NCBI RefSeq assembly: GCF_964204645.1
Contig: NC_134033.1
Coordinates: forward strand, 7,696,655-7,760,654
Source: Tubulanus polymorphus
Taxonomy: Eukaryota; Animalia; Nemertea
Reading direction: 5' to 3'
DNA: 64,000 bases
Shown: positions 4,231-49,270 of the stretch, one piece after another
How positions within the stretch are numbered: the stretch's first letter is position 1
Layout of the letters: the number at the start of each line of letters is the position of its first letter
Position numbers and translations under genes: made by a program
The notes under the pieces: model-generated
What the model saw: only the letters and a program-made list of their open reading frames with translations
Database searches by the model: none
What the model was told of the DNA's origin: nothing

Positions 4231-4268
<38 letters not shown>

Positions 4269-7200: not shown

Positions 7201-7345
7201 GGCATATTTTGTTACTATGATCAATTGCAAAGTTGTATTTCATGACATGTACTACGATTGTGGTGAGTTTTAAGGTCATTGGGTTTTGTATATGGTCACC
7301 AGGGGGGCATTGAATAGTAGAATAACTTGTTATAATAATTAATAT
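3994..7345 (+). mobile_element. Non-autonomous Helentron-type element (HINE family A), copy 1, 3'-truncated
   Basis: 5' hairpin head TAGGGTTTTCTG-TTACATCA-CAGAAAACCCTA, (TTA)n tract, ~1-kb body shared with 7490-8500 and 25385-26380, then a 31-bp array. A deletion at ~6385 fuses it to family-B internal sequence. Confidence 0.75.
5262..6385 (+). repeat. 31-bp minisatellite with internal palindrome
   Basis: Unit TTTTGGTTTTGTCGCCCGCGACAATTCATTA (TTGTCGC-CC-GCGACAA stem). Confidence 0.95.
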
Positions 7346-28000: not shown

Positions 28001-29179
28001 TTTTGACGCCTTATAAAACGTTACCATTATGAAACCTAAACAATGTTGACCATTCAGCGTCATTTTACAAACGACAGCCGTAAATCGATGTGCAAAACGT
28101 CACAGGTCTATGTTTACACAAACAAGCTATCTGGCAAAATATTATTGACATAGATGTAGAATGGCTTCCTGTGATTATATAATGACCTATATTTGAACGT
28201 CGAAATGTTATATTGCATTGAATATCATTAGAAGACGTATTGTAATAGTAAAGGATGTATGATTATATCAGAAGCATAAATAGAAATGATAAGTAAATCG
28301 GATTATTCGGTTAAATGGCGGATGTATACACGATTTGGAAGTCTGATATAAAAGTCAGACCCTGACGTGGGCATGCCGGTGGAATGACGAAGCTATCTAC
28401 GATGTGTGTAGGGCCGGCGTGAATTTCATCAGCGGCTACAAGCGGTCAATATGAAAATGTGTAAACATATAATTTCAATATTCAAACGTTTTAGAAAATA
28501 TGTTTGATATAAGGAGTATGCAGGTTTCGTGAGATCAGCAATTTATAATAGCATAGCTGTCATATACGGCTCCGCGTCCTCTGATGGCATGTGTATTAGG
28601 TGACAATTCAATTCAATTCTTTATTGATCCTTATTACATTGAAATTCCGGGATAAAATTCCCAAATTCAATAAATACAAATTTTAAAATAAATTAATACA
28701 ACATACATGACACACGGGTAATTCATACAGAACAACATAAGCATGTTATTCTAAATGACAATGTCTACTTCAACCCACCCAGACTCAAGACTCTAGGATA
28801 TCGAGTGACAGCCAAACCCGTGGCCCGGGCCCGGGCCGGCTGGTTAGGCCACACGATATGCTCGAAGTCATGATGAAGCAGACATCAGAAGAGCTCTTTC
28901 TTCAACCATGGAGGCAATGAAGTTGCAGACCAGTTTAGAGGCATAAGTAAATGAAGTCGGTCGCAAGTTCGCGATCAATTATTGAGAATTTTCAATAAAA
29001 AAATTTAAACCACTACTAGAGTCGAATACCTGTATCATCTACCCAATGGCCAAATCTCATCATTCCCCAAATTTCTTAAAACTTCGATTCCAAATTTGCA
29101 ATTCCACATTAGCTTAGCCCAGAAATTCTACATTTTTTTCGCAGGCGTCAAATAATTTTCTAAAATTAATTTTCTTGTT
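28001..29179 (+). mobile_element. HINE-like family D, copy 1
   Basis: Starts TTTTGACGCCT, ends AGGCGTCAAA plus an AT stem plus TTTTCTTGTT; second copy at 49663-50760. Confidence 0.7.
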
Positions 29180-29823
29180 TGGTTTTGTCGCCCGCGACAA
29201 TTCATTAGTTTGGTTTTATCGCCCACGACAATTCATTACTTTGGTTTTATCTCCAGCGACAATTCATTATTTTGGTTTTGTCGCCCGCCACAATTCTTCT
29301 TTTTGGTTTTGACGCCCGCGACAATTCAATATTTTGGTTTTGTCCCCCGCGACAATTCATTATTGTGGTTTTGTCGCCCGAGACATTTTCATTATTTTGG
29401 TTTTATCGTCCGCGACAATTCATTATTTTGGTTTTGTCGCACGTGACAATTCAATATTTTGTTTTTGTCGCCCGTGACAATTCATTATTTTGGTTTTATC
29501 GCCCGCGACAATTCATTAGTTTGGTTTTGTCGCCCGCGACAATTCAATATTTTGGTTTTATCACCCGCGACAATTCATTAGTTTGGTTTTGTCGCCCGCG
29601 ACAATTCTTTTTCAGTCCACTTGGGACTTTAGTCTCAGTGGGCTATTGCGTTCACTTTTCGTCCGTCCGTCCGTCCATAGACGGAATCCAGTTATTTTGG
29701 GAAGTTTTGAATACGCTTCAAGGTAATGTCTTGATATCAGGTTTATACATGTATCTACCCTAGACACATCGTCAGCCCAAAAACTGGCCCTGTCAGATTC
29801 AAGATGGCCGTCTGGCAGCCATT

Positions 29824-30205
29824 AGTAATAGGGATAATAGGCTTTCATACCAAAGGTCGAAGGGTCGAGCTCGTAAAAAATGAAAATAACAATAATTTAC
29901 AGTTGAATTAGTCGCGCACACTCCTAATTCAACTGTAAATTATTATTATTTTCATTTTTTACTCACTCGCCCCTTCAACCTTTGATACGAAAGCCTATTA
30001 TCCCTATTACTCTTAAAATATTCACATAAATGAATAACATTTAAATCATTGAACTTCTAAAATCAATTTTAATAAAAAATATAGTATTAAAATGGAAGCA
30101 AATAAGTACTACTGCCCAACATGTAATATCGATATAGATAAATCCCAAAAAGCAAGACACAATAAAACTAGAACACATTTAGAGAATAAATTGAAACTAG
30201 AATAT
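29824..30205 (+). repeat. Left TIR (outer 188 bp is a fold-back palindrome)
   Basis: Reverse complement of 47343-47725 with 4 substitutions and one 1-bp indel by eye. Confidence 0.95.
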
Positions 30206-30343
30206 TTACAGTTATATTCAGAACAGTTAACAAAGGGAAAGAAATTTATTGAATTATGGAATAATGATCCAAATAATGAACAATACGTTGAGGAATTTAT
30301 TATCAAGGAATCGAAAGAACTTATCAAAAGCAGCGAGGAATGA
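30092..30343 (+). CDS. Chimeric 83-aa ORF: pPolB N-terminal zinc finger fused to an HNH-protein-like tail
   Basis: First 38 codons lie inside the TIR and match the pPolB start; the remainder resembles the C-terminus of 30423-31088. Confidence 0.6.
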   Translation: MEANKYYCPTCNIDIDKSQKARHNKTRTHLENKLKLEYLQLYSEQLTKGKKFIELWNNDPNNEQYVEEFIIKESKELIKSSEE

Positions 30344-30422
30344 AAAAGGATGACGTTGGTCGAAGAAATGGAAGAGGATTCTAAAATTATTAACCAATTT
30401 AGTAAAAAAATACGTATAATAA

Positions 30423-31088
30423 ATGGAACCAGAACAACCACAAACTATCAATATTACAAATAACACTGGCGTTATAAACATATATTACAAGAAGTGTTCT
30501 AAATGTGAATTAGATAAATCATTAACAGAATTTAGTAAGCGTAAGATTAGCAAAGATGGTTTTCAATATTGTTGTAAAACTTGTACTAAACTATATACCA
30601 AACAATATCGAGAAGATCATAGAGAATCTTATAATGATTATATGACAGAATACATGAGAGAAAGATATCAAACAGATCTTAATTTTAGATTGAAACAATG
30701 CTTAAGGACTAGATTAACACAATTATTCAACAAAGAAACACATTCAGAAACACTATCTAATCTATTGGGTTGTTCAGATGAATTTCTCAAATCATGGATA
30801 ATATATCAATTCGACGATAAAATGAATATAGATAATTATGGAGAATACTTTCATATTGATCATGTGTTGCCGATTTCTAAATTTGACATGAATGATGAAT
30901 ACAATAAAAAACTTATTTGGAATTGGAAGAATCTAAGACCTTTAGAAAAGAAGGAAAACATTATTAAATCCAATAAACTAGATTTACAGTTATATTTAGA
31001 TCAACTGGATAAAACAAAGACATTTGTTGAATTATGGAATAGTATTTCACAGAATCAACCGCATTCTGAGGTTTTGATCAGTGGTTAG
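30423..31088 (+). CDS. HNH endonuclease with N-terminal CxxC...CxxC zinc finger
   Basis: CSKC...CKTC, then LLGCS...NYGEYFHIDHVLPISKF...WKNLRPLEKKENIIKSNK. Confidence 0.8.
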   Translation: MEPEQPQTINITNNTGVINIYYKKCSKCELDKSLTEFSKRKISKDGFQYCCKTCTKLYTKQYREDHRESYNDYMTEYMRERYQTDLNFRLKQCLRTRLTQLFNKETHSETLSNLLGCSDEFLKSWIIYQFDDKMNIDNYGEYFHIDHVLPISKFDMNDEYNKKLIWNWKNLRPLEKKENIIKSNKLDLQLYLDQLDKTKTFVELWNSISQNQPHSEVLISG

Positions 31089-31436
31089 AAAGCTGGCAAT
31101 TCTATTTGAGCTTTGTATGTATATAATACATAGCTTTTGCTTACTACTAAAACATATGTTGCCAAATATATCTTGTTTTCAATTCTAAAGAATTAATTAA
31201 CTTCATCATAAAGAACATCTGTGCAGAAGTAATTAGTTTGGTCGAACGTGCGCCACGTCGGCAGTTAGAAATCAACTTTCACATACATAGTACGTATTGG
31301 ATATTCTCTCTCAAAACACAGTTTACAGTTCTAAATCTAAATGTAAGTACTGTTTTTTGTAGTTATTATGAAGTAGGGAAACCTTTAAACATATTTAAGT
31401 ACAGTAATTCATTTTCACGATATCTTTTAGATTAAA

Positions 31437-32165
31437 ATGGAACACAAAGATCAACCAGAAATTCTAAGCCAACCAACGGATGAGGAACGATTGCTTCTGG
31501 ATAGTGAAACTCAGGAATCAATAGAAATGGAGGATGAAACTCTCGTAATTGACGAACAAACTTCCCAAACATTACAAGAACATTTGGACTATCATCAAGA
31601 AATGGTGAAAATTCTGAGTGATGTAATACATAATAAACAATTACCGCGCGAACTACAATTACCAAAATTACCAGCAACGCGACTCAAATTGCTGTTGGGG
31701 CTCAAAGAATCGAAAACTAAGAAAATGAGTGGAGAAGAGTTGAACGAGTTTTTAAAATCTAAATTAATCATTAACACAGAACATTTAAACTTTCCGGAAA
31801 TACAAAGTGTAGAAGTTATTTCATTTGCTGAAATTACTGATATCTTAAAAAAAAGTTATAAAACCATATTAAATAGAAAAGCAAATCACGTATGGGACCA
31901 CATCATATTCGGGGGTTATCTAAATATAAGGTTTTCAATGTTTGATAAAGAAACTGAGGGGATTTCTTGGGGACTGTGGGTTAAAAAGAACATAGATATC
32001 AGTGCTGGTTTTGAAAGAAAACTGAGAAGAGTAGGTAGATTAATAAAATATGAAAAATTCAAAATATTAGGATTAGCATTTAGTGAAGTAGTAAGACATT
32101 TACCAGAAATTGAAGAAATGATTGGAAACAATCCAGTAATTAAAGAATTCTGGACAAAATTATAA
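31437..32165 (+). CDS. Hypothetical protein, 242 aa (possible 5'UTR intron upstream)
   Basis: Intact ORF with acidic N-terminus and a helical C-terminal domain; function not recognised. Confidence 0.7.
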   Translation: MEHKDQPEILSQPTDEERLLLDSETQESIEMEDETLVIDEQTSQTLQEHLDYHQEMVKILSDVIHNKQLPRELQLPKLPATRLKLLLGLKESKTKKMSGEELNEFLKSKLIINTEHLNFPEIQSVEVISFAEITDILKKSYKTILNRKANHVWDHIIFGGYLNIRFSMFDKETEGISWGLWVKKNIDISAGFERKLRRVGRLIKYEKFKILGLAFSEVVRHLPEIEEMIGNNPVIKEFWTKL

Positions 32166-32229
32166 ATTATAATACTGAAGGTCTTAGATATCAAAAATGT
32201 AATCTCGATTGTATATATCTGTTTTAATA

Positions 32230-32586
32230 TTGTATTGTTTACTGTTAACTGTGTATTGCGTAATAACCGGTCCGATTGAACCGCTTTTCTATTGTTCTCC
32301 ATTGTTCTACTATTGATCGTTGTTAATGGCGGCGGTTGTTCTGTATTGATTGTTTACTGTTAACTAAGTGTTTTGTAATAACCGGTCCGATTGGACCGCA
32401 TTTCTATTGTTCTCCATTGTTCTACTATTGATCGTTGTTGACTGAAACAGCTGCTCAATATTGATTGGTTACAGTTCTATGTTTGAATGTTGTAGTTTAC
32501 AGAATAAAAATATAACTGTGTATTGCATAATAACCGGTCCGATTGGACCGCATTTCTATTGTTCTCCATTGTTCTATTATCGATCG
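32230..32586. repeat. Three imperfect repeats with CGGTCC-GATT-GGACCG palindrome
   Basis: TAATAACCGGTCCGATTG(G/A)ACCGC.TTTCTATTGTTCTCCATTGTTCTA at ~32261, 32377 and 32528. Confidence 0.85.
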
Positions 32587-32970
32587 CTAAAATTTACATA
32601 ATGAATATATGTGTTTATGAAATAGAATTCCACCAGTCGTTTCTTTGAGTTTATTTTCAGTTGAGGATTTGATATCGAGGATCCGAAATGACTTATCTGG
32701 ACAGTTATAATTACTGCTCCTAATAGATAGACAATAGTAGTGAGATATCAAATAGAATTTAAATAAAATATAATAAAAAAACAATAACTTCAACTATCTA
32801 TTATTTCTATTATATTTTTAATATTTTCTTTTCAAAAGAGAATACTTTATATCACAAATAAAAAATACTTAAAAAACAATAACTAATACTAGAATTCTTT
32901 AACTTCAACTAGCTAGTATCATTTGAAGAATACTTATAATATTTTTTTTTGCTTTTTTCCTCTAATATAA

Positions 32971-33573
32971 ATGTCAAAGAAATCTAATAAGAATAGTATT
33001 GATATTGAAAAAACATTAGATGATTTGGGTATAAGTGATAATAAAGATACAGTTGTAACTAATTCTATTCAAGTTAATAACAATATAGATTATGAATACT
33101 ACTTATATTGTAAGCATCATCTAGAACTATTGATTGCCGGTGGAAAAACTAATGAGTTTTTAACTAAGACTATTACTTTTCAAGAATTAGATGCTATGAA
33201 ACCCGATAAAGTAATAAAATATTTTAAGATTTATGAAGAGGCAAGATTAGCTAGAATAAATGATTCTATTTCAGATGGTATTGTCAAATGTTATTCTAAG
33301 TTATGTAACCAGTTAATACCAATTGATGATGAAAATAAATTATATAATGATTTGAAAAATGACTATTTAGTTATGACTGAATTACAAAAATGGGTTGGAT
33401 ACGCTTCATTTCAATTAGGATCGGTTATGACATTGATTTCTACTGGAGTTATAACATTTTCGAATATCAAACCTATGGAATATAAATCAGGTAAGAACGA
33501 AACAGATGTACTACAACCAAACGTCGAAACAGAAAATGAATCAGAACAAAAATTAACTAAAATAAATGAGTGA
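32971..33573 (+). CDS. Polinton hypothetical protein, 200 aa
   Basis: Intact ORF with TAAATG start and a hydrophobic segment near the C-terminus. Confidence 0.75.
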   Translation: MSKKSNKNSIDIEKTLDDLGISDNKDTVVTNSIQVNNNIDYEYYLYCKHHLELLIAGGKTNEFLTKTITFQELDAMKPDKVIKYFKIYEEARLARINDSISDGIVKCYSKLCNQLIPIDDENKLYNDLKNDYLVMTELQKWVGYASFQLGSVMTLISTGVITFSNIKPMEYKSGKNETDVLQPNVETENESEQKLTKINE

Positions 33574-33961
33574 TGGAGTTAAGAAAAAGGCTAGATCCGA
33601 GAAACAAATTAAATGGGCAAGAGAATTAGGTAAAAGATCATCAGAATTAAAAAAAGCTAAGAAAAAGAAATTAACTGATATAAATGAATCACAGAAATTA
33701 TCTGATGGTGCCGTACAGCACCCACACGGTGGTATTGATTCAAATAATAATCCATCTGATTCTTCTAATAGTGGAAGAAATAATTACTTATATATTACAA
33801 TTGGGTTAATCACAATTATTATATTCTCCGGTGTAATATATAAATCAAAATTCAAATCTGATGATAAAGATGATTCCAATGATGATAAACCTATCATACC
33901 CGAAAATAAGTCAAATCATAAATCAAATGAAAATAAATCTAAAATATTATTAATGGATTAA
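33566..33961 (+). CDS. Basic single-TM protein, 131 aa
   Basis: Lys-rich N-terminal helix; TM YLYITIGLITIIIFSGVIY. Confidence 0.7.
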   Translation: MSDGVKKKARSEKQIKWARELGKRSSELKKAKKKKLTDINESQKLSDGAVQHPHGGIDSNNNPSDSSNSGRNNYLYITIGLITIIIFSGVIYKSKFKSDDKDDSNDDKPIIPENKSNHKSNENKSKILLMD

Positions 33962-33964
33962 AAT

Positions 33965-35053
33965 ATGATGAAAAAAGAACAATATTTAAGAGATTTATAT
34001 TATAACCCAGAAAGTGAAGTTTCATATTCAAGTGTTTCGGAATTATGGGATAAAATTAAATCTGATAATAGCAATATAAAATATAGTGAATTAAAATCAT
34101 GGTTACAAAATCAACCCACATATCAAATTCATAAAAAGATGGATTAAAAATATTTAACAAGAAAAGTAATGGTTTCATATATCGATCAACAATGGCAAGC
34201 AGATTTAATTGACATGAAGAACTTAGAAGAATATAACAAAGGATATTTTTGGATACTAAATGTTATAGATATATTCAGTAGATACGCATGGAGTATCCCG
34301 ATTAAAAATAAAACTGGTATAGAAGTAACAAATGCTTTCAAATTAATATTTAAAGAAGCTATCCCAGATAAAATACAATTTGATGAAGGTAAAGAATTTT
34401 ATAACAAACATTTTAAAAAACTATTAACTGATAACGATGTAGAATATTTTTCAACACATTCAGATAAAAAAGCATCTGTTATAGAAAGATTTAATAAAAC
34501 ATTGAAAACTAGAATGTGGAAATATTTCACCGCTAATGAAACATATAAATATATCGATGTGTTAGATGATTTAGTTAAAGGTTATAATAATTCTAAACAT
34601 AGTTCTATAAATATGAAACCTATACAAGCTAGAAAAGAAGAAAATTCAGAAATAGTTTGGAATAATTTATATGGAGCATTTGTTACACATGATTTCGGTG
34701 AACCTAAATTTAAAATAGGACAACACGTTAGAATTTCTAAATATCGAAAAACATTTTATAAAGGTTATACCCCTAATTTTACAGAAGAAATATTCAAGAT
34801 TAAAAAGATAATATTAACTAAACCATTTGTTTATAAATTGTTTGATTTAAAAGATGAAGAAATATTAGGTTATTTCTATGAACAAGAATTATCATTAGTA
34901 CCAAATCCAGATGAAATAGAATACAAAATAGAAAAAGTATTGAAAACAAAAACTCTTAAAGGAAAAAAGTATTCTTTGGTGAAATATAAAGGATATGATG
35001 ATAAATTTAATGAATGGATTTCATCTAGTAAAATTAAAAGAATAAATGAATAA
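33965..35053 (+). pseudogene. int: Retroviral-like (rve) integrase with C-terminal chromodomain; one in-frame stop
   Basis: WQADLID / FDEGKEF / IERFNKTLK DDE motifs; YKIEKVL...VKYKGY...EWI chromodomain. ORFs 33965 and 34169 are in frame across TAA 34145-34147. Confidence 0.93.
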
Positions 35054-35657
35054 AGATTTATTTATATTTGAACCACATAATATATTAGTTACTGGAGTTA
35101 CAAATTGTGGTAAAACACATTTCATATTAGACTTGTTAGAAACTATTTATAAAAATCATTTTGATAATATAATATTATTCTGTCCTACATATGAAATGAA
35201 TAAAACATATAATAGAGATATAGTTAAGATAAAAAAGTTTATTATATTAGATCCTAAAACAGTAAAAGAAAATTTAGATAATTGTATAAAAATTGCATTA
35301 GATATTTATAAAGGATCAAATACATTATTCATTATAGATGATTGCGCAAATTTACATGATTCTAAAATTAGAGAAAGTGAGTTATGATATTTAGCTTTCT
35401 CTGGTAGACATTTTGGGATAACAACTTGGGTTTTAAATCAAAAATATAATTCAATTGTGAAAGATTTTAGAGAGAATATAAGATTTCTAGTTTTATTCTA
35501 CAACAAAGATAGAAAATCTATGCAACAATCATTAGAAGAAAATCAAATTATACCTACTGAATTACATGATGAATATATGAATAAATTAAAAAATAATAAA
35601 GGTTCAAAATTATTACTGAGATTACAATTTCCTTATGAATATAAATTTATAAAATAA
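35046..35657 (+). pseudogene. A32/FtsK-like DNA packaging ATPase; one in-frame stop
   Basis: Walker A GVTNCGKT, Walker B FIIDD; TGA at 35385, then YLAFSGRHFGITTWVLNQKY...REN in the same frame. Confidence 0.9.
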
Positions 35658-35679
35658 CTATTTGTATACCTATGTATTA

Positions 35680-35758
35680 GATACCCTAATACCTGATACC
35701 CTAATACCTGATACCCTAATACCTGATACCCTAATACCTGATACCCTATTAGATACCT
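35680..35758. repeat. 15-bp tandem repeat between convergent gene blocks
   Basis: (GATACCCTAATACCT)x4 plus partial units. Confidence 0.9.
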
Positions 35759-35831
35759 TAAATAATTTAAACCCCCTTTTTTATTTACTATTATTTTATA
35801 CAATTTTCAACCTTTATTATTCGAGTTTTAG

Positions 35832-36788
35832 TTAATCAATTTCTGAATCACTTTCACTATAAGACGCTAACAATTTATTTAAATGCTCTACCGAATCTTC
35901 TTCAATATCTTTATAATTTTTTTTCACCTTTTTCACCTTTTTCACCTTTTTTACCTTTTTCATATTTTTTACTAAATCATCAATAGTTGTTTTATTGTTA
36001 AGTTTATTGATCCAATCAAATTTATCATTATTTTCTACTTTAAGTTTTATAGAATCTTTATTATCAATATGTTTAACTGTAACTATATCATCATGTGGGT
36101 GTATAACACCATTTTCATTATCATCTTTATTAGTGTTTGATCCTAATATTTCATTTACAGTGTTTGATCCTAATATTTCATTAGCATCGGTTAAATCTAA
36201 TTCATCTTTATTAGGTGTTGCTAATAATAAATCTTCATATATTTTTTCACCATTTACTTTTTTATTTGAAACAAATTTTGTAACATATCTAAATGGGTGT
36301 TCTATAAATTCTTTTTTACCAACACGTTCTATAACATTAGTAATATGTGAATTTGTATTCATATGTTTATTCCAATTTGATGGAGCGTTTGAAAATTCAC
36401 CATTACAATAATCACAATAATTTCTATTTTCACTAACATTTAATATTATTGCATTATTATATGTAGAAGGTATTATATTATTTGATGTAGAGGGTATTAC
36501 AGATGTAGAAGGTATTATGTTATTAGATGTAGAAGGTATTACATTATTAGATGTAGAAGGTATTACGTTATTAGATGTAGAAGGTATTACATTATTATCA
36601 ATTACATTACTTAAATTATCAACAACTTCACTTTTATTATTATCGATTTCTATTAGTTTAGTTTTATAATTTTTAAAAATAGGATCAAATATCGAAGCTA
36701 TATTACAAGGTATTACATAATATAAACCATCATTATTTTCATGTGTATCGATGTATGGAATATGTTTATATACTTTACCTCCTTCCAT
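35832..36788 (-). CDS. Hypothetical 318-aa protein with C2H2-like finger and NNVIPSTS repeats
   Basis: CDYC...HMNTNSH; about six 8-aa repeats; (KKV)n tract. Confidence 0.75.
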   Translation of the reverse strand: MEGGKVYKHIPYIDTHENNDGLYYVIPCNIASIFDPIFKNYKTKLIEIDNNKSEVVDNLSNVIDNNVIPSTSNNVIPSTSNNVIPSTSNNIIPSTSVIPSTSNNIIPSTYNNAIILNVSENRNYCDYCNGEFSNAPSNWNKHMNTNSHITNVIERVGKKEFIEHPFRYVTKFVSNKKVNGEKIYEDLLLATPNKDELDLTDANEILGSNTVNEILGSNTNKDDNENGVIHPHDDIVTVKHIDNKDSIKLKVENNDKFDWINKLNNKTTIDDLVKNMKKVKKVKKVKKVKKNYKDIEEDSVEHLNKLLASYSESDSEID

Positions 36789-36820
36789 TTATTATATATA
36801 TTTTTATTAAAGTTAAAATT

Positions 36821-38068
36821 TTAGTACATAACACTATCTAATTGTGAATTTACAATATTTATTTGCGCATCAGATATAATATAAATATGCATTTTAAAAT
36901 TTTTAATTCCTTTTTTCTTTGTCATGAATAATTGTATTCCATCTTTTGTATTTTGTAATTTTTTCCCAGAACCATGTAATGAATTATCTTCAGTTGTTCT
37001 AAAATCTAACCATAATGCATATTTATTACCGGTATAATAATCAATTTGATTAATGTTACAATTTTCAAATGATTTTACTTTTTCATTCATAAAATGTTTT
37101 TTAATTTCTACCCATTGATCAATCATTCTCATTCCTTGACAAAATATTTTATTTGCTATTCCTTCGATAGTTATTTCTACTTTTGTTATTTCAGGATTAT
37201 AATAATTGTCAACATTTATTGCGCCATTAGTATACGTTCCAATAGTAAAAAATATTAATATACCTTTAATAGATCTTCTAGGGAAGTTAATATTCTCATT
37301 TATTATTTCATCATTTGCATTAATAGTTACAGTTTTAAATTTATCAATATAATCATATAATAATGAAAATCCTTGATTGTATTGAGTTTGAATTATACTT
37401 GAAATATTTTCATCAGTTACTGTATCATATTCTAAACATATATTCGATAATTTATAACTCATATCTTTATTAACGCTAGATAATACAATTTCATTTACAG
37501 GAGCAAATGTTATCTCGAATATAATATCTTCTTGAATTGCGTATTTATATAAAGGTGCATTATTATTTATCAATTCAAAGTCTAATGGAATTTTATATTT
37601 GCTTCCATATATACTTTTTATCAATTTATCTACATCATTTGTTAATATTGCGCTATTAGCTTCTGATCTAAATTTATTTTGGTTTTCTGATTGGATTCCT
37701 TGAAATATCATATTATTTCTATTTTCTTTAGTTAACCATAAATCTTTATAATGCATAAATAAATTATAATCATCTAATGAGAAAACTGTTTCTGGTCCAA
37801 TCTTTATTGTTAACTTTTTAATCAAATATCTTCCAACATTATCAACGACATAATTATTATTATTACCGATTACTTTTATATCAGCTGATAAATAAATACT
37901 GTTTGGAACGTAAAAAGTATTTTGTGTTAATCGAGGGATTCTAACGTATAAAGTTTCATCGGGATTAATATTTGAAGGGTTATGAGTAATTATATGATGT
38001 GATCTTTCTGCTTTAATAGCATTAGATATTCTATGATTCTTAGAAGGATTGATATAACTCCCACTCAT
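36821..38068 (-). CDS. Major capsid protein (double jelly-roll), intact
   Basis: 415 aa, beta-rich; NPSNINPDETLYVRIP, YKIPLDF, LEYDTV, RRSIKGIL and ALWLDFRT resemble Polinton MCPs; size and context fit. Confidence 0.8.
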   Translation of the reverse strand: MSGSYINPSKNHRISNAIKAERSHHIITHNPSNINPDETLYVRIPRLTQNTFYVPNSIYLSADIKVIGNNNNYVVDNVGRYLIKKLTIKIGPETVFSLDDYNLFMHYKDLWLTKENRNNMIFQGIQSENQNKFRSEANSAILTNDVDKLIKSIYGSKYKIPLDFELINNNAPLYKYAIQEDIIFEITFAPVNEIVLSSVNKDMSYKLSNICLEYDTVTDENISSIIQTQYNQGFSLLYDYIDKFKTVTINANDEIINENINFPRRSIKGILIFFTIGTYTNGAINVDNYYNPEITKVEITIEGIANKIFCQGMRMIDQWVEIKKHFMNEKVKSFENCNINQIDYYTGNKYALWLDFRTTEDNSLHGSGKKLQNTKDGIQLFMTKKKGIKNFKMHIYIISDAQINIVNSQLDSVMY

Positions 38069-38109
38069 TTATTTAACAAAAAAATTAATTATTTATTTTT
38101 AATCATGGT

Positions 38110-39589
38110 TTACTTGATATTTTTTGATATCATATTCACTAACCCAAAAATAATAGCACTTACAACTGTAATTAAAAATAAAATAATATGTTCAGCAGCA
38201 AAGTTAATAATGTTTCCTGCAGATTTCAATATAAAACCAACAATTGAAGCAATAACTCCTGGTAAAGCTGCAGCAGATTTTTTAGATAGTTCCCATAAAT
38301 ATTTTGCTAATTTCTTTAAACCATCAACTTTAACTTTATCTTGTATAGAATTATTACCTGGAGGTTTATCTGGTTTATCCGGTTTATTGGGAGTAGGAGT
38401 AGATTTCAAAGCATTTGAAATAGCTAAACCAATTGTTGTAAATACCATAGTTACAGCTGTTAGAATTGAAAGAATTGTTATTCCTTCTAATTTAAATAAT
38501 AACTTTATTCTATCTTTTAATGATATTTCAGAATTTGGTTTAATCAACAAATCTTTAAAAATAACTTTTAATCTATTTATATTATAATCATATGATTTTA
38601 ATAATAATTTAATTTCTTCTTTTTGTAATTCTATGTTATATTCTAAATCATCAATTTCTTTTTCTAAATATGCATTTCTTTTTTTAAATTCAATTTCTTC
38701 AATAACTTTATTATCTCTATCTAATTTTAATTGTTCTATTTCTTTTCTTGATTTTAATAATTCATCTTCTAAAGTTCTAATTTTTAAATCTCTTATACTT
38801 TTATCATGCGCAATTTTATCAGATGCAAGTCTTATACTAATAATTTCTTTAATTGCTTTATCAGAAAATATATTTAAATCTTCTAATTCTTGTTTTGTTG
38901 CATCAATTAATCCATTCGGTAAAAGTTTTTCAATTGGAATTTTATTTGATTTAAGTTTACTAGTTTTGGAAGTTTTATTCTGTTCAGAACTTGTTTCTGG
39001 TTCTAAATTATTATCGATTGTTTCAAATAATTCATTAATTCTTTGTTTAAATACTCTTTCATTTTTAATAATTTCTTCTTGTGTTACATCTTCTATTTCA
39101 TTACTATTTCTTATTCTTTTAATTCTAGATAGTAATGAGTCAGACTTAAGCAAAGTTGATTCTGCTAATATTTTGTTTTGTTTTTTTATAAGAGATATCA
39201 ATATAATAATCATCTTTCAAATGATAATAATATTCACCATCTAAAGATTTTAATTCTTGTACTAAAAGTCTGGCGCCTCTAGCATTGATATTATATCCAG
39301 ATTTTTCAAATATAGGTTTGAAATTATAAATATATTCATTATATTCTAAATTTTGTTTTACTAAATCTGGATTTTCATTTTCAGGATTTATTCTCGATCT
39401 AGTTCTTCTATCAAATTCATCTGTTGATTGACCTTTAGAACCACTATCTGCTAAATTAGAATTATATGCTGATTCATCATCATTATCAATATTAGTTTCA
39501 TTAAAATCGGGTTGTGGTTCATCATCAATATATCCTTCATTATTATTTCCCATTTCTCCCATTTCATAATCTTCTACACCTTCTGCCAT
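38110..39589 (-). pseudogene. Coiled-coil plus membrane protein, probably one gene frameshifted in an A-run near 39184
   Basis: Removing one A joins ...DISYKK to QNKILAESTL...; only the 39589 start has TAAATG; several C-terminal hydrophobic helices. Confidence 0.7.
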
Positions 39590-39606
39590 TTACATAATAA
39601 AAAAAA

Positions 39607-40778
39607 TTAAAATTTAAAATATAATATTCCTCCGATTACATTTCCTATACAAGTTATAGCTAATTTAGTATTTTCATGGGATTTATTATCATCATTTAGT
39701 TTAATTATATCATGTTGAATTTTATCAGTTCTATTATTTTCTGATGTATAGAAATAATTAATAGATTAGGGCCTATACAATAATTTAGTCTTACATGAGA
39801 TTTATCTAAATAATTTTGATATCTTATAATGTTTTCTGGAATCGATCTATTTTTATCATTATGTATGGAATCTTCAAATAAAACTTTAAACTGTTTTTGT
39901 GTATCGAATGATGTATTAAAATTTCCAATTATCGGTGATCTTGTTTCAACTTGTGATCCTAGAATACAAATCAAATAAGTTCTAATAGATTGATTTATTC
40001 TTTCTATACCTGATTTAGTAAAACCTTCACTATTTTCTAAAATAAAATAAACCCAACCATTATTGTTTTCTTGTTTTAAATTATCATAAAATTTCGGTAA
40101 TTTATTGAAATTTAATGTTTCTAAATCCTTTGTTTCTATTTTACCATAACCTAATTTATTATTATAGATATTATAAAAACTATCAGTTGGTATGGGAAGT
40201 GCACAATATTCTGCAATCTTTTTAGGGCAAGGAAGTGATCTTATTGTTCCAATTTTTGTTCTAAAATCAGAATTATTTATATCTATATTAAATTCATTGC
40301 AAATCTTATAAAACTTAGATAAATTAATATTATTATCTAATTCTTTAAAATATCTAGATCCTGGTAAAGCACACTCTAATTCATTTAATATTATTCTGAT
40401 TTGAAAGTATGTATGAAATCTAAATAAACTTTGAATTAGTTTATATTTAGAATTATTCAAATGATCATTCCAACTAATTCCACATCCTGTTGTTGCACAA
40501 TAAACAGCAAAATTTAATTGGTTCTGCCAATACTTCATATTAGATTTTAATAACCATTGTTTTTCATCTTTCAATTTTTTAAAATTAATTAAATATACAT
40601 GAAATATATTTTCCATCTTTGCATTAAAATTATTAGTTTCAGTAACATAAATTTCTAAATTAGTTAATGAATCTAAAACTTCATTTCTATATGTAATATC
40701 TTTATTAAAATCTATTGCTGGAATATTATATTTAATTGATTTATTATATCGGAAAGCTTTTGGAAAACTATCTACCAT
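39607..40778 (-). pseudogene. Polinton-type virion protein, C-terminal TM tail out of frame
   Basis: WQNQLNFAVYCATTGCGIS core; a different frame beyond 39715 reads HENTKLAITCIGNVIGGIIYFKF-stop. Confidence 0.6.
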
Positions 40779-40795
40779 TTATATAATTAAAAAAA

Positions 40796-41230
40796 TTAAT
40801 AATATATTAATTCTTTTAATAATTTATCTTGTTCTTCAACTGTTATATGACCATTTAAACTTATTATATTATCTAGTGTGTTCTTAAATTTATTTATTTC
40901 TTTTATATTAGTTTTAATTTTTTCTTTATTACTTTTTATATTTAATTTTGAACTTATACCAGTTAAAACACTTGAACTTAATCCTAACACACCAATTGAT
41001 ATAGCTAAAGGTGTTAATGGGCTGAATATTGCTAGAAATGTTATTACAGAACTAATTGTAACCGAACCACTTATAATCAAATAATATATAATTTTACTTT
41101 TTAAATATTTTTTCTTTTTTATCTTTAAGTCACTTTCAAATTCTAATATTTGTTTTTCTAAATATGTTTTTAATTTAGTTTTATTTATATCATGAGGAAT
41201 AATATCAATACTATCAACTTTATCTTCCAT
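40796..41230 (-). CDS. Two-TM membrane protein, 144 aa
   Basis: Two adjacent hydrophobic helices flanked by charged helices; TAAATG start. Confidence 0.75.
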   Translation of the reverse strand: MEDKVDSIDIIPHDINKTKLKTYLEKQILEFESDLKIKKKKYLKSKIIYYLIISGSVTISSVITFLAIFSPLTPLAISIGVLGLSSSVLTGISSKLNIKSNKEKIKTNIKEINKFKNTLDNIISLNGHITVEEQDKLLKELIYY

Positions 41231-41249
41231 TTATTTAGAATAAAAATTA

Positions 41250-41672
41250 CTAATTAGTAAACTTATAAGCAATAAATATAACAATAACTGTTCCACCTAA
41301 AATCCATATTATTTCATATTTCTGTTGTTCTTTACTTGGGGTATAATAATCTGATAATTTAGGTTTGTATAGATGTAATTTTTCTTTATTGGTTACTGCG
41401 TTATATAAACTCATTGCATCATCAACTGATTGAAAATCTCTACGTGAAATCTTCTGATCATATAATTCTTTATTGATGTAATCCATATAGTTTTGTCTCT
41501 TTTCTCTATATTCTTCTGCAGCTTTATTGTATTTCTCTAACGCTAAGTTATGTCTTCTCTGTTCTCCTAATGAACTATTTTTATCAATATGTTTAAATAA
41601 ATAACCACCACCAGTAAATGCTAAAGCGTTAACAATTGCCGATCCTATAATAGTTATAATTGCAGAAGCCAT
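41250..41672 (-). CDS. Small membrane/virion protein, 140 aa
   Basis: Hydrophobic N-terminus (VNALAFTGGGYLF), EQRRHNLALE helix, C-terminal TM. Confidence 0.75.
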   Translation of the reverse strand: MASAIITIIGSAIVNALAFTGGGYLFKHIDKNSSLGEQRRHNLALEKYNKAAEEYREKRQNYMDYINKELYDQKISRRDFQSVDDAMSLYNAVTNKEKLHLYKPKLSDYYTPSKEQQKYEIIWILGGTVIVIFIAYKFTN

Positions 41673-41697
41673 TTATTTAACAAAAAAAATTATACAT

Positions 41698-41919
41698 TTA
41701 TATGGGAGGAATATATTTTTGTTTTTCCAAATAATCAATAGTTAAATTAGATAAAGTAACTGCTAATGTTAACTTTAAAATATCATTTATATCAAATCTA
41801 TCAACATTAACACTTCCCATTTTGAATACTTTTTTTAATACCATTGAATAACCAACAGTTCCAACTGATAGTAATGCGCCATTATATAATCCAGTTATTA
41901 TCCACTTATTATCACTCAT
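41698..41919 (-). CDS. Small hydrophobic protein, 73 aa
   Basis: Intact, TAAATG start, tightly packed in the virion block. Confidence 0.7.
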   Translation of the reverse strand: MSDNKWIITGLYNGALLSVGTVGYSMVLKKVFKMGSVNVDRFDINDILKLTLAVTLSNLTIDYLEKQKYIPPI

Positions 41920-42261
41920 TTATTTATCAAAAAAATTACTATCATCAAAATATTTAGTTAACTTATTTATGATTAATTCAACATTTATTTCATTACTACT
42001 TTTATGATTATCATATATTTTGGATAATATGTTTTTGATATCTTCAATAATTCCATCTTCATTTAATTCATAATATTCTAAAGGTGATTTAATTAAATCA
42101 ATTACTTTTTCTATATTATACTTTTCTTTATCAATCATTGATGCATTGTTAAATGATTTACTTTTTATATCAGTAATTACATCATTTAGTTTAATTCTCA
42201 TTTCTTTACCATGTTTAAAATCAAACCCAAAACATATACTCGGTCCAACAGTTATATTCAT
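41920..42261 (-). CDS. Hypothetical protein, 113 aa
   Basis: Intact, TAAATG start; its stop abuts the next start. Confidence 0.7.
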   Translation of the reverse strand: MNITVGPSICFGFDFKHGKEMRIKLNDVITDIKSKSFNNASMIDKEKYNIEKVIDLIKSPLEYYELNEDGIIEDIKNILSKIYDNHKSSNEINVELIINKLTKYFDDSNFFDK

Positions 42262-42278
42262 TTATATAGTGAAAAAAA

Positions 42279-43037
42279 TTACTCTCTACATCTTATAACT
42301 AATTCATAAATTACAGGGAAATTATTTAAATCAATTAAGTATCCATTATGATTTCTAATTTCTAATCTAAAATTATTAAATTTAGGAATGCAAGGTTTGA
42401 AATCACATTCTGTTAAATTATAATTTATTTGCGTTCCAAATTCTTTAACATTCTTCAATGGTAAAATGTTTAGTAAACCAGAATTACAAGTTATATCTTT
42501 AGTTGCTTCGAATGTTTTTGTAGGATCGATTAAATTGCAATAAATATAAAAATGTGTAAAAGGCATTATATTTGGTGTAGCATCAGCATTGCGTATCCTT
42601 ATATCTGGGGTTATTCCTAAAATTTTAGCTAAAGGTTTTTTAACTAGAAATTGATGTTGATCTTCATTACCTAATTTTATTCTTATTTTATCAGAGCTAT
42701 CACTTTTAATCAGTCTTAATCCAAATCCAGCAGATGCACCCATTTTTAACCGAGCTCTTCTATTAATTTCTTGAGCTAATGTATCTAAATTATATAATCC
42801 TGGTTTAAGATAAAGATGAAACCATTTACTTTTATTTCTATCATGAATTAAAAAGACTCTATGTTCAATAGACTTATCCGATATATTGTAAAAAGAATTA
42901 CATAGACTTATATTAACTAATTTTAAATCAACACAATTCTTAAATTCTCTATCTAATTGTACTAGTAAATTATGTGATTTATAATTTGTAAGTTTTCTAG
43001 AATCAACAAATATTCTGTATTCTTTTAATTCCGCCAT
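42279..43037 (-). CDS. Probable minor capsid (penton, single jelly-roll) protein
   Basis: PGLYN, FYIYCNLID and RLEIRNHNGYLIDLNNFPVIYEL resemble Polinton penton motifs; 252 aa. Confidence 0.7.
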   Translation of the reverse strand: MAELKEYRIFVDSRKLTNYKSHNLLVQLDREFKNCVDLKLVNISLCNSFYNISDKSIEHRVFLIHDRNKSKWFHLYLKPGLYNLDTLAQEINRRARLKMGASAGFGLRLIKSDSSDKIRIKLGNEDQHQFLVKKPLAKILGITPDIRIRNADATPNIMPFTHFYIYCNLIDPTKTFEATKDITCNSGLLNILPLKNVKEFGTQINYNLTECDFKPCIPKFNNFRLEIRNHNGYLIDLNNFPVIYELVIRCRE

Positions 43038-43054
43038 TTATTTTACATATTTTC

Positions 43055-43396
43055 TCATTCGAAATCTATTTCATGGTGTCCTTTTTCATTCTTACCTTTA
43101 TATACGAAATAGAAATCTCCAGAACATAATTCTTCTAGATCTTCACTTGATAATCTATGAAATCTATCTGGTAAATAAGTTCTGAATTTATGTGTATTTC
43201 CTTTTAATCCTTCATATTCTAAATGAATTATTAATTTATCTCCATATTTGTTAGTAACTGTAACAATATTTGTAATTAAATATTTCTTGTGAATTGTTAA
43301 CTCAGTTAGTTTTTTGAATTTATAATCTACAGATTTGACGCTTGAAGTATCTTTAATTCTATCTAAGAATTCACTGTGTACTTGTTTACTCTCCAT
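43055..43396 (-). CDS. Small beta-rich protein, possibly OB-fold ssDNA-binding
   Basis: FKKLTEL...Y.I...TNKYG...YLPDRF pattern, directly downstream of pPolB; fold is inference. Confidence 0.55.
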   Translation of the reverse strand: MESKQVHSEFLDRIKDTSSVKSVDYKFKKLTELTIHKKYLITNIVTVTNKYGDKLIIHLEYEGLKGNTHKFRTYLPDRFHRLSSEDLEELCSGDFYFVYKGKNEKGHHEIDFE

Positions 43397-43424
43397 TTAT
43401 TATACAAATTTTTATTGAAATTGA

Positions 43425-46400
43425 TTAACACGTTAGAATCCTTTTCATAATCTCATTTTCTTTTGTTTCTTCTCTTTTGAATTTTATATATTCATCTAAA
43501 TTGCAACCATAGGCGACTGTGTGGATTCCATCATCTAAAATATATCATTTATCATCAAATGGGTTTAGACTTATCTTCTCTATCTCTTCAATATACATTT
43601 CATGATCTTCAGATCTTAAACATTTCATTTTATGTTTTCTAACTTCTTCATTAAATATACAATTGATGTAATCTTTGAAATGAATATTCTTTTCTACTAC
43701 ACTTTTAGTTATTCCTTTTAACTTTTTAGCTTCATGTTCTTTAGTTTTATATGAATACATTTTAGATCTAATACCTATGAACTCTATCATTTCTTCACCA
43801 CCTAATTCATCCTTAAACTTCCCAGGAACTTTTTTATTATCATTGCTAAACAATTCATGATTTTTTGGATAGTTACTAAAATCAAAATGATGATTTAATA
43901 TTTTTAAATCATCAGTTATGTTATCAGTTTTTATCTTTAATATATAACTGTCAGTATCAAAATATAATATTTCAATGTGTTTTTCCCCAAAATGGGGTTG
44001 CAATACATTATAATAGAATTCATACATCAATAGCTTTGAAATTTCTAAAACTGCAGCTCCAACATAAATAGGTTTATTGAACTTCATAGAAGTTCTTTTT
44101 AATTTAACTGCAGCTAAATTTTCATCGAATATTCTATTACCTATGAATTTCGGATACGATTGTAAATGCCTTATCCTTTTACCATTACTAACTAACTCAA
44201 TATCATTTCTATTTCTTATGTTTTCACAAGTCTTACCATAGAACGCATTGTTCATTAGTTTAAAGTAATCCTTCTCAAAATCAGTTTTAGCTTCAGTTCT
44301 CTGTGTAGTATTAAAATCTATATATTTTTCTAACCACTTAGATTGATTAAATGAAATATATCTATGTACTTTTTTTAATATCATTCCTTGATTCAAATAG
44401 AATTTTAACATTCTATAATGTACTACATAATTATATTTATCTTCTTGAGTTACCATTAACTTTTCAGTATGAATATGATTATCGGGTTTAATTCTTTTTT
44501 GATAATTTGATAATTCTTCATGTTTAACAATTTTATGTTCGGGACAATATGCTAGATTTCTAGATTTAAATTTAATATTTTCAGGGTATTCTAAATCTAC
44601 AACAAAGAAGTAACCAATATCTGAATCATCTGCAATATCTAGGATTCTTTTCTTCCAATCAAATTTATCAATTTGTAAAACTTCAGTTATTTCAAACATC
44701 CCATAAGGTTGTGGTTCCATCATTGCCCAACCATAAAGATTATTTGCATCTATGTATAATAATTTATATCCAGGATTATCATTTACATTGAAATATCTAT
44801 CACCCAATACACCTGAAACACCTCCTCTTATAGATTTTTCAAATAATAGTAATTGATCTATATTTGTTAACAAATCCATTTTTATATTTGTAAATTTTAA
44901 TCCACAATCCCATGTTAATCCTGGTGATGAATAACAATGACAAAGATCAATGTTAAAATATTTTAGGTTTACATCTCTAAACCTTTCGAATATATCAGTT
45001 AATAATAATACATCTGATTTTAAATATAAATCTACTAATTGCCCATGATTTTCTATTTTGAAATGATTCCAAATATTCAATGTTCTATTATATACTTCAT
45101 CTTTAACATATTCATTTTTTAATTCATCATAGAATTGTTCTTTTAATAATTCAGTTATTTTAAAATCATTATGATTTTTATAGAAAGAATATGGAATTGC
45201 ACCTTTATATCTCATTAATTTAAAATCATCATAATTTGGGTAATATTCTTCTAATATCTTTAATTCATCATCAATTAATGATTTTGATAAGTTATCTAAT
45301 GAACTATTTAAAAATCTATATGAATCTATAAATCTTAAACAACCAAATTGAAATGATATATAATTCTCAGATGTTTTAGCTAACATTCTAAATTTATAAG
45401 TTGGTATTTTATCTTTTGATTAATTTGAATTTAATATTTCTATTTCATTATTAATTTCTTCTATTTTATGACACAGTTGTTTAATGAATAAATGCGCGTC
45501 ATACCCCGATAAATTGTGAAATATAATGGGGACAAAATTTACTTTTTTAGCTTGCAAATTACAATTCTCATGTGCAGCGCCTCTAAATTTACCATTCAAA
45601 TGATCATGGTCTCTTACTTTTTTATCTTTATAATTAAATATCTTTTCACAATAATAACATTTATCTGCAAACGCAAATACTTCTTTATCTTCTTCTGTCA
45701 TTATAATTTCTATATTTCTATTCAATAATTTACTAAATCTTATTTCATATTCAATTAATAAGTCACAAAAATGATTAATAACATTTTCATTTCTATACTG
45801 ATAATATTCACTTTCAATTAGTTCTGGATAATCAGATTTAATATATAACCCGAAAGCAGCAGCTGATTGATGAATCTTTTTAATAGTATTTGTTTTTGGT
45901 GGTTCTTCTGAATAATCACTTTCATTAGAATTTAATTTCTTTCTTTTATAATATATATCTTTTCTATCTTTATCTGTTAATTCTTTATTTAATGATTCAA
46001 AATCTCCATATATTACAAATGGTATTTTATTTTTGTAATCATATTTTTTGAATTCTAATATTTTATCCTTTTCATTTGGTAAAACTAATTTACAATAATC
46101 ATGATTATCACATAGTTGTTTATGATTTAATAATGTACTTTCATTACTAAATTTATGTAAACATTTTCTACATAGATATATTTTATTATGGTGATCACTT
46201 TCTGTTCTAAAAAATAAATCTATTTGTTTAATCCACATATAATGATTCTCATAATATAGTATATCTATAACATCATTTGAATCATAATCTTTTGATAGAT
46301 ATAAAGGTTCTAATGTATAATGTTTAATATTATTTCCTTTTGTATTTGGTAATTTAATTAAATCAAATACATTTATTTTAAGATTATTATCTCTTTCTAT

Positions 46401-47456
46401 TTTTGGAATATTTTTAATTCTAACAGGATACTTATCTATCTTATAATTATTTTCAAATTGTTTATAATGAGTTAATCTAAAACTATGTGTAATATCTTCT
46501 GTTGGATGTAAACAACTTATTATAGCCCATATAAAACATTTATTATCAAAATTTTGTATATTTATTACACCATTAGTTTTAAATGGTAGTTTAATATAAC
46601 TTGTTCCATTTATACTATCATCTTTATAATATGATAAATTATTTTCATCAATTGGTTTTGATTTTGTTAACTTATTATATTTTGTGTTATAAACATGTAA
46701 AGTTATAAATATTATCTCATCAAATATTAAACCAGATCCTTCAAAATATTTCTCTTCTATTTTAGTTTTTACTTCATTATAACATTTATTTAATTTATCA
46801 TCTATATGTTGTTTAGATATAATATGTTGTGAATGAGAATTTATATTATATATTGGTTTATCTTCAGATTTTATAAATTTAACTTTAACTGATATACTAA
46901 TTTTTGGATATTCTACGTTTGTAATTATTTTTATTATTTCTTTCATATTTTCTAAATGTTTTTTATTTTCTTCTATTGTTTTTCCTTTATGAAATTTAAA
47001 CTCGATAGCTGCTGGACCAATATCACTTTTAAATGCTTCGGTTATCTCTATATCTTTTTTATTATCTAATGAATTAATATAATTTCTTACATCTTCCATG
47101 TATGGTCTTTTATTGTTTAATTTATTTTTTATTCTTTTAATTGTCTTCTGTTTCTTATCGTTATCATTATCAAAATAATCTTCACCTAAAATATCATTAT
47201 TCTTATTTCTAATATGACTTATAGATTTTAAATGTTCTTTATAATATCTTTTATCACTGAATGATTGATTACATGTATCACATTTGTATGTTTCTTTTTC
47301 ATTCTTTAATTCTTCTAATTTAGTTTCTAATATATCATCCTTATATTCTAGTTTCAATTTATTCTCTAAATGTGTTATAGTTTTATTGTGTCTTGCTTTT
47401 TGGGATTTATCTATATCTATATTACATGTTGGGCAGTAGTACTTATTTGCTTCCAT
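43425..47456 (-). pseudogene. polB: Protein-primed family B DNA polymerase (1343 codons) with two in-frame stops
   Basis: All exo/pol motifs present. TAA at 45420-45422 and TGA at 43545-43547 replace Arg codons of the 16186 copy; the frame continues to TAA at 43425. Confidence 0.95.
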
Positions 47457-47725
47457 TTTAATACTATATTTTTTATTAAAATTGATTTTAGAAGTTCAAT
47501 GATTTAAATGTTATTCATTTATGTGAATATTTTAAGAGTAATAGGGATAATAGGCTTTCGTATCAAAGGTTGAAGGGTCGAGTGAGTAAAAAATGAAAAT
47601 AATAATAATTTACAGTTGAATTAGGAGTGTGCGCGACTAATTCAACTGTAAATTATTGTTATTTTCATTTTTTTACGAGCTCGACCCTTCGACCTTTGGT
47701 ATGAAAGCCTGTTATCCCTATTACT
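47343..47725 (-). repeat. Right TIR (47537-47725 fold-back palindrome)
   Basis: Inverted copy of 29824-30205. Confidence 0.95.
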
Positions 47726-49270
47726 GCCATTGTTGTTTGCCAAAATCAGCACTTTTTAAACATTTTCGAAGTTTTCGTGGGAAATTTTGAAGACGCTTTG
47801 ATCAATTACCCTGATCTTTCGTTTATATTTGAATCTGCCAAAGGCCCATCAGCATAAGAAAATTGGGTCGATCTGACTCAAGATGGCCGTCCTATGACCT
47901 TTTTAGTGCCCAAAAATGTCAATTTTGGCCAGAATTCTAGGTCCTGTAGCTTCCTACTGGTTTGCCATTTTCATTGCAATTGCTGATAGGTATTCTTTAG
48001 AGAGGGGTGTTTAATACCTGGGACAGGTATTTTTGATCAGCCAATTATGACGCAATTGGCGGCCATCTTGGTGTCATCAGTACTCATTCGTAGGTGGGAA
48101 AAAGTTTTTCCACATTAAATTTATACCTAAGCATATTGTGTTACTATATTCAATTGGAAAGTTGTAGCCCATAACGTGTTCTATGATTGTGGCGAGTTTC
48201 AAGGTCATTGGTTTTTGTATGTGGCCATCAGGGGGCATTGAATAATTCAACAACTTAGTATTGCTATATTATATTTGTACCAAGGCATATTTTGATACCA
48301 TGATCGCTTGCAAAGTTGTAGTTCATGACATCGTCTACGATTGTGGTGAGTTTTTAAGGACATTAGTTATTCCATATAGTCACCAGGGGGCGTTGAATAG
48401 TAGAATGACTTAGTATTTCCTTATTAGATTGGTACCTAGGCATATTTTGTTACTATGATCAATTGCAAAGTTGTATTTCATGACATGTACTACGATTGTG
48501 GTGAGTTTTAAGGTCATTGGGTTTTGCATATGGTCACTAGGGGGCGTTGAATAGTAGAATAACTTAGTATTTCCATATTAAATTGGTAACGAGGCATATT
48601 TTGTTATCACAATCAATTACAAAATCATAGCTGCTCACATGTTCTATGATTGTGGTGGGTTTCAAGGTCATTGGTTTTTGTATATGGTCACTAGAGGGCG
48701 TTATGTATTGAAATTGTTAGATTGTTGAGCATTTGAAACCACTGCCCAAGTGAGCATGGTGTCCCTGGACCCCTAGTTTGGTTTTGTCGCCCGCGACAAT
48801 TCATTATTTTGGTTTTGTCGCACGCAACAATTCAATATTTTGTTTTTGTCACCCGCGACAATTCATAATTTTGGTATTGTCACCCGTGGTTTTGTCGGAA
48901 CATTAAGGTTTTTGGTCAAACAGCGTGTTAAGGTCGTTTTGGAAATTTACTCGGTCTGGTATATTTTGGATTACTGTGTATGTCATTTGTCAGGACATTA
49001 AACAGAAGACGACTTAGGATACTACCTTGCGTGACTCCACCAGTTAGACCGTCTCATTCCAAGATGAGGCGTCCCGTTGATTTCGGTTACAAGTTTCCGT
49101 TCAGAGATAACTCCTGAGCCATTTGGGCGACCTATCATTGATACTGTTTCCTAATAGCCTGTTTAGTAATGGCTGATGTTGAGCCTCATCAAATGCTTTG
49201 TTGAAATCCACCGTTGAACAGGATTCTAAGACTGTGCAGAAAACCCGTTATCGCTGCTTTGCAGCTATAT

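Follow-up and report, generated by a model that had tools for sequence, protein, structure and literature searches.

Most gene starts of an integrated Polinton or polinton-like virus (PLV) in the genome of the nemertean Tubulanus polymorphus carry a common TAAATG word across the start codon, and we think it likely, with modest confidence, that this signal acts by itself as a promoter, one that serves the RNA polymerase of a large DNA virus infecting the same cell and not host RNA polymerase II (Pol II). The element lies in a 64,000-nucleotide stretch of contig NC_134033.1 (NCBI RefSeq assembly GCF_964204645.1, forward-strand positions 7,696,655 to 7,760,654), which is referred to here as the window and from whose first letter all positions are counted. 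It is a capsid-encoding Polinton/PLV, because it has terminal inverted repeats (TIRs), a 6-bp target-site duplication, a family B DNA polymerase of the protein-primed type (pPolB), an rve integrase, an A32-like ATPase and a capsid protein of double jelly-roll (DJR) fold. Its dependence on a helper is what we infer. In the window copy TAAATG spans the start codon at 14 of 18 genes, at three others the word is TAAAATG, and in the integrase gene a TAAA lies shortly upstream of the ATG; since the start at 30092 duplicates the pPolB start through the TIR, these are 17 independent starts. An earlier note on this DNA had reported TAAATG at 14 start coordinates and TAAAATG at pPolB (47456), 30092 and 31437, and all of these were confirmed, each TAAATG overlapping its start codon. 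TAA precedes 63 of the 688 ATGs of the element, and 49 of 476 non-gene sites taken as the first ATG after a stop (10.3%), against which 14/18 gives p = 3e-11; with two additional composition nulls p falls below 1e-12, so that the enrichment over an AT-matched background, proposed in the same note as a check, holds under all three.

The motif is restricted to one capsid lineage. A search with the capsid returned 955 homologues, which reduced to 83 loci, and 62 of these were usable for a capsid start fixed by homology, three others being without an ATG and the rest without the N-terminus. The capsid start reads TAA-ATG in 15 of the 62 (L001-L013, L034 and L080, with GC contents of 20-44%). A quick capsid tree, made with no outgroup and including one spurious row (L018_TTTA), splits off a motif-free clade of 39 rows (branch 1.05, SH-aLRT 100) from the motif-bearing side, and does not establish monophyly of the latter. 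At anchored starts TAAATG is found in 71/82 cases from 19 motif-side loci, in 1/68 from 19 other AT-rich loci, and in 3/292 from 46 GC-rich loci, some of whose starts are probably mis-called. The motif is present even at 40-44% GC (L007 and L008), and in L034 it stands on all 11 listed open reading frames (ORFs), with AATAAA absent from 10 of them. T stands at -3 in 73/82 motif-side starts and A in 54/68 starts of the AT-rich relatives, T here being the opposite of Kozak bias, and G follows the ATG in 49 of the 71 motif starts.

Several observations concern loci outside this lineage. In the AT-rich relatives off the motif side (L022-L028, L052, L053, L071 and L082) the ATG is mostly preceded by AAA, and in 33/68 a TAAA lies at most 7 bases away from it; either Kozak context or a relaxed version of the TAAATG initiator could account for this. 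An unrelated pPolB element (L214, identical to L114; positions 1-9034; 35% pPolB identity) has TAAATG at 7/7 plausible genes, one of which was picked by the search pattern itself, and is possibly a second lineage with the same start signal; its integrase has a long N-terminal region, protease-like on visual inspection. Some capsid homologues (the P0046 cluster; L081-L083) are entered under Bartonella or under names of bacterial or archaeal metagenome-assembled genomes and are probably host-DNA contamination.

The start word is accompanied by a fixed upstream base. T-N8-TAAATG (T at -9) occurs at 13/14 window starts and 56/61 dereplicated starts, compared with 49/157 TAAATG sites that are not starts (p = 6e-17), and a tract of the form AnTm of at least 5 bases lies over T(-9) at 46/61 starts versus 27/143. 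As first described, a T-run lies upstream of the capsid gene and of the membrane-block genes, and 30423, 36788 and 43396 have the AAAAAT-N3-TATAATAAATG form. These had been taken as two promoter classes, a division that goes with the type of gene in the window together with L001-L004 (p = 2e-6, with shared descent and with classes defined on the window) and shows no association with it in distant members (p = 0.28); orthologues change from one class to the other. T-N8 is kept in 23/25 A-rich promoters as well, and the T-run and A-run classes are therefore two ends of one design. A trans-splice acceptor at the starts was ruled out, as no AG precedes the ATG.

Each gene likely has its own portable promoter of about 20 bp. 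The upstream stretches are AT-rich also in the more GC-rich members of the motif lineage. In motif-free relatives the gene order is nearly fixed (capsid, ATPase, ORF200, ORF73, ORF140, integrase), and in the GC-rich group tandem gaps have a median of 7 bp. The ATPase is next after the capsid in 37/42 other loci, compared with only 2/14 motif-side loci, in which 8 kinds of neighbour occur. Such scrambling is what would be expected if each gene carried a portable promoter. The small distance between divergent ATGs, which for most motif pairs is 24-30 bp, was discarded as an argument, the same spacing being found in motif-free relatives.

The earlier note had equated the signal with the poxvirus late promoter. 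Vaccinia late promoters have TAAAT and G across the start codon with a conserved upstream T among Ts, and intermediate promoters have TAAA plus an A-rich core (PMC11980589 and PMC5294985, in excerpt); the polymerase reads TAAA, a factor reads the AT-rich core by its shape, and the spacer between them has a fixed length (PMC12917281, in excerpt). TAAATG is retained in salmon gill poxvirus and in an entomopoxvirus, according to excerpts of PMC4542343 and PMC3061580. The element resembles this arrangement in its TAAAT and G over the start codon (14/18; 71/82), its upstream AT-rich core, its conserved T among Ts and the favoured G after the ATG. The published strings are T-N9-TAAATG for late and TAAAAA-N14-TAAA for intermediate promoters (PMC11423596, Table 1); in intermediate promoters the AT-rich core lies about 12 bp from TAAA, on its upstream side. 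In contrast, T in the element peaks at N8 (56/61; N9, 46/61), one base nearer than the late consensus, and the A-rich promoters at 30423, 36788, 43396 and 47456 read TAAAAA-N9 to N11-TAAA. The signal would thus work only partly like a poxvirus post-replicative promoter: the initiator sequence, its overlap with the ATG and its independence of composition and Kozak context stand, yet the vaccinia spacing tests, which used vaccinia consensus strings only, failed. Also unlike vaccinia, the element has no early promoter, and the signal sits on an 18-kb element without a polymerase gene. AAAAAATGAAAATAA, which had been likened to a poxvirus early core, is indeed present in the hairpin arm at 29875-29889; its 4 window matches go back to a single palindromic site that the symmetry of hairpin and TIRs multiplies, chance alone would give 2.94, and the site is not found in the sister copy at 15640. 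A poxvirus early system was accordingly rejected, the AAAANTGAAAA core occurring only at a single palindrome, some 200 bp away from an ATG, with a frequency consistent with chance and not in the sister. TTTTTNT as an early terminator was likewise set aside: its observed/expected ratio (O/E) in genes is 0.34, but T6 (0.21) and A7 (0.29) are depleted too, and there is no enrichment after stops (11 sense versus 15 antisense, of 71). The asfar-like virus also suggested earlier is a poor fit, since the invariant word here is TAAATG and the late initiator of African swine fever virus is of TATA type (excerpts of PMC7163114 and PMC5294985).

Shared promoter motifs are an accepted mark of helper dependence in the Cafeteria mavirus (PMC8547959, in excerpt). 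By analogy with mavirus, integrated copies of the element would be almost inactive until infection of the cell by a large DNA virus. The A/T tract would be recognised through its shape by a viral TBP/TFIIB-like factor, and the polymerase would initiate at the first A of TAAA, slip, and add a 5' poly(A) leader as vaccinia does; a start within TAAA with slippage would keep the T at -3 out of the mRNA. Poly(A) leaders arise by polymerase slippage (PMC6211774, in excerpt). Over 40650-43560, reads of four runs, three of which are contigs, have no site with many molecule ends, and among the matches listed there is no poly(A)-like loose end. In two of these runs (X2 and X3) summed contig depth over the same interval peaks over the 140-aa gene and drops steeply over the two downstream genes, far more than in the DNA run X7; contig depth is no expression measure. 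On the coding strands of the motif side A and T runs are strongly avoided (A7 O/E 0.29; T6 0.21), with no such avoidance in the AT-rich relatives (A5 O/E 0.94), which may reflect a slippage-prone polymerase.

A number of points weigh against a pox-like helper, or against any helper. Apart from the one-base shift of the upstream T, TAA-ATG is found at up to 5/10 genes in prasinovirus-like and other giant-virus-like contigs, so that a poxvirus cannot be identified from the motif, and the named entries among the best 50 folds for the HNH gene of the element include no poxvirus protein. Among the matches listed for three motif scans of viral contigs, there is no large virus in which the motif heads the majority of starts. 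L015 is on the motif side of the capsid tree and nevertheless lacks the motif, the motif-side group behind the 71/82 was partly picked after the motif had been seen, and many loci may derive from few hosts. The element family is high-copy, since 13,721 reads of one DNA run (1,934 million letters) fall on 2.9 kb, mostly 90-99% alike, and such a copy number is more easily reached if the host can transcribe the element. A pox-like helper is as such a tentative proposal; because of the giant-virus-like TAA-ATG starts and the likeness of the HNH gene to those of mimiviruses, marseilleviruses and phages, another nucleocytovirus with a TAA-ATG late start is about as likely, and equally far from assured.

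The main rival, which we regard as rather unlikely, is that host Pol II uses the motif as a lineage-specific initiator producing mRNAs with almost no leader, possibly under the direction of a factor that the element itself encodes (ORF242, ORF318 or another uncharacterised gene), and that the element is an autonomous nuclear Polinton. The high copy number in host DNA fits this better than it fits a helper; the integrase carries a chromodomain, several ORFs are without assigned function, the motif-free relatives are very compact too, and AATAAA lies on the sense strand near 31/71 stops versus 10 antisense, though partly as the motif of the next gene. Against host transcription, a start at TAAA would leave a 2-base leader and a start further upstream would leave T at -3, both of which are poor for cap-dependent scanning. 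AATAAA is moreover not depleted within the AT-rich genes, at about 5 per kb (62 in the 11.7 kb of window genes, O/E 1.05; 0.97 across the lineage), and the motif matches a known viral-polymerase initiator exactly. Considerably less probable is a polymerase supplied by a co-resident linear cytoplasmic element, as pGKL2 supplies pGKL1 in yeast with its TAAAN initiator. Yeast virus-like elements are AT-rich and pPolB-based. Their polymerases are related to those of poxviruses, their initiators are TAAAN and their transcripts carry 5' A leaders (PMC6211774, in excerpt). Neither in the nemertean element nor in 18 related proteins scanned was an RNA polymerase gene recognised. We know of no pGKL2-like element in animals. 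It is similarly improbable that the motif is punctuation, either an in-frame stop for translational coupling on long mRNAs or the poly(A) signal of the upstream gene. AATAAA is contained in 10/14 window motifs, and the TAA necessarily shares the frame of the ATG; however, TAA serves as the upstream stop in just 3/61 and AATAAA overlaps the motif in 28/82, which speaks against both versions, as do the 10 motifs of L034 that lack AATAAA, the divergent pairs in which both genes are headed by the motif, and the fixed T at -9, which neither coupling nor polyadenylation requires. AT-rich composition with Kozak bias, which has the 24% GC of the element in its favour and which the earlier note had named as an alternative to its own reading, is excluded by the three nulls, the 1/68 in AT-rich relatives, the persistence of the motif at 40-44% GC and the T, not A, at -3.

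The features of the element are listed in the table below. Its GC content of 24% compares with 35-39% in the surrounding host DNA, and in the window copy the pPolB, integrase, ATPase and at least two further genes are interrupted. The capsid model (pLDDT 88) matches the DJR capsids of PBCV-1, iridovirus and mavirus, and the nearest named viral folds to the HNH product are from mimiviruses, marseilleviruses, pithoviruses and phages. A named PolB relative in a lacewing, like the repeat-rich flanks, speaks for an animal host; no capsid or pPolB relatives were found in the viral contigs searched. No adenovirus-type cysteine protease, which is usual and not universal in Polintons, was found by Pfam matching of 22 ORFs, a search that remote homologues could escape. 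The 252-aa ORF is, as a guess, a minor capsid protein, and a search for it gave no match. The closest relative, L001, has a deoxynucleoside kinase gene (10340-10981) with a T-run TAAATG start, and P0180 combines a deoxynucleoside kinase domain with a match to the HNH gene; a search with the kinase returned only unnamed proteins. The HNH nuclease and this kinase are cargo typical of large DNA viruses.

Table. Features of the integrated element and its insertion site (window coordinates)
Feature	Coordinates	Strand	Remarks
Integrated Polinton/polinton-like virus, 17,902 bp	29824..47725	.	24% GC island; at least 5 genes interrupted
Left target-site duplication, 6 bp	29818..29823	+	GCCATT
Right target-site duplication copy, 6 bp	47726..47731	+	GCCATT
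Left TIR, 383 bp	29824..30205	+	98.7% to right TIR
Right TIR	47343..47725	-	pPolB promoter and start inside
83-aa ORF	30092..30343	+	TIR duplicate of pPolB N-terminus; TAAAATG start
HNH-type endonuclease, 221 aa	30423..31088	+	A-run T-N8-TAAATG start
242-aa ORF	31437..32165	+	no assigned function; TAAAATG start
200-aa conserved ORF	32971..33573	+	T-run TAAATG; sole window start without T at -9
131-aa ORF	33566..33961	+	one hydrophobic segment; A-run T-N8-TAAATG within end of upstream gene
rve integrase with chromodomain	33965..35053	+	PF00665; break near 34145-34168; TAAA 5 bases before ATG
A32-like packaging ATPase	35046..35657	+	PF04665; internal stop 35385-35387; A-run T-N8-TAAATG start within end of integrase gene
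318-aa ORF	35832..36788	-	zinc finger; A-run T-N8-TAAATG start
Major capsid protein, 415 aa	36821..38068	-	double jelly-roll; T-run T-N8-TAAATG start
Membrane protein gene, two frames (147 + 367 aa)	38110..39589	-	T-run T-N8-TAAATG at 39589; single 485-aa ORF in L001
357-aa conserved ORF	39705..40778	-	442 aa in L001; T-run T-N8-TAAATG
144-aa protein	40796..41230	-	two transmembrane segments; T-run T-N8-TAAATG
140-aa protein	41250..41672	-	two transmembrane segments; T-run T-N8-TAAATG
73-aa conserved ORF	41698..41919	-	T-run T-N8-TAAATG; TAA doubles as stop of upstream gene
113-aa ORF	41920..42261	-	T-run T-N8-TAAATG
252-aa ORF	42279..43037	-	A-run T-N8-TAAATG
113-aa ORF	43055..43396	-	A-run T-N8-TAAATG
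Protein-primed family B polymerase, two ORFs	43545..47456	-	PF03175, E=1.6e-14; A-run TAAAATG start (47456); break near 45400, early stop near 43545

The outermost 188 nt of each TIR form a long imperfect hairpin (29824-30011 and 47537-47725; z=-21). A second, truncated copy comprising TIR and pPolB lies at 15640-20135 (92.5% over 4,012 bp); its pPolB start retains the TAAA form, and its hairpin is 347 nt long (15641-15987; z=-23), with differences that are paired on both arms. The hairpins could prime replication; a terminal hairpin is atypical for a pPolB element, going by a preprint on Halocafeteria (10.64898/2026.07.28.741278). A solo TIR remnant is found at about 21315-21732, short tandem repeats lie in the element's long intergenic region (32228-32586), and arrays of a 31-bp host satellite (26400-29600) adjoin the insertion.

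At stake is the lifestyle of animal Polintons, which may be autonomous viruses of the nucleus or may parasitise larger viruses, and a lineage-wide signal with fixed spacing offers a direct test of this and a barcode for tracing the helper. That sister lineages differ, with a frozen gene order where the motif is absent, suggests that one Polinton family contains both lifestyles. If the helper is pox-like, provirophage biology would extend from protists to animal genomes, and the element would point to undiscovered cytoplasmic viruses of invertebrates. It is possible, and we raise it only tentatively, that this animal Polinton lineage consists of provirophages of a pox-like invertebrate virus, that all of its genes were rewired to the late promoter of that virus, freeing the gene order, and that T-N8-TAAATG predicts the promoter of the unsequenced helper. 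We found no publication on TAAATG starts in Polintons, in a literature search that scarcely covered subscription journals, and regard the fixed T-N8 spacing and the lineage-specific scrambled gene order as new.

Among known systems, the mavirus and EMALE provirophages of Cafeteria, where CroV has a late TCTA motif, are likewise integrated, encode pPolB, rve integrase, ATPase and DJR capsid, and have one motif ahead of their genes; in contrast, the element described here has a probable animal host, another capsid lineage and another motif, and no protease was found in it. The PLVs from entomopoxvirus occlusion bodies (Barth et al. 2024, PMC11296320, for which the available parts of the paper contain no promoter analysis) are also Polinton-like and are proposed poxvirus hyperparasites in animals; they differ, going by their description there, in being about 12 kb long, in having a protease and in lacking an rve integrase. 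The yeast pGKL elements share a linear, AT-rich form and a TAAAN initiator near the ATG, but have their own polymerase and an upstream conserved sequence (UCS), encode no capsid and do not integrate. The virophages and PLVs of Halocafeteria have palindromes at the outer TIR end beside the target duplication, as is the case here, although theirs are 52 nt long and mostly in non-pPolB elements, whereas those of the Tubulanus element are 188 nt (347 in the sister copy) and belong to a pPolB element.

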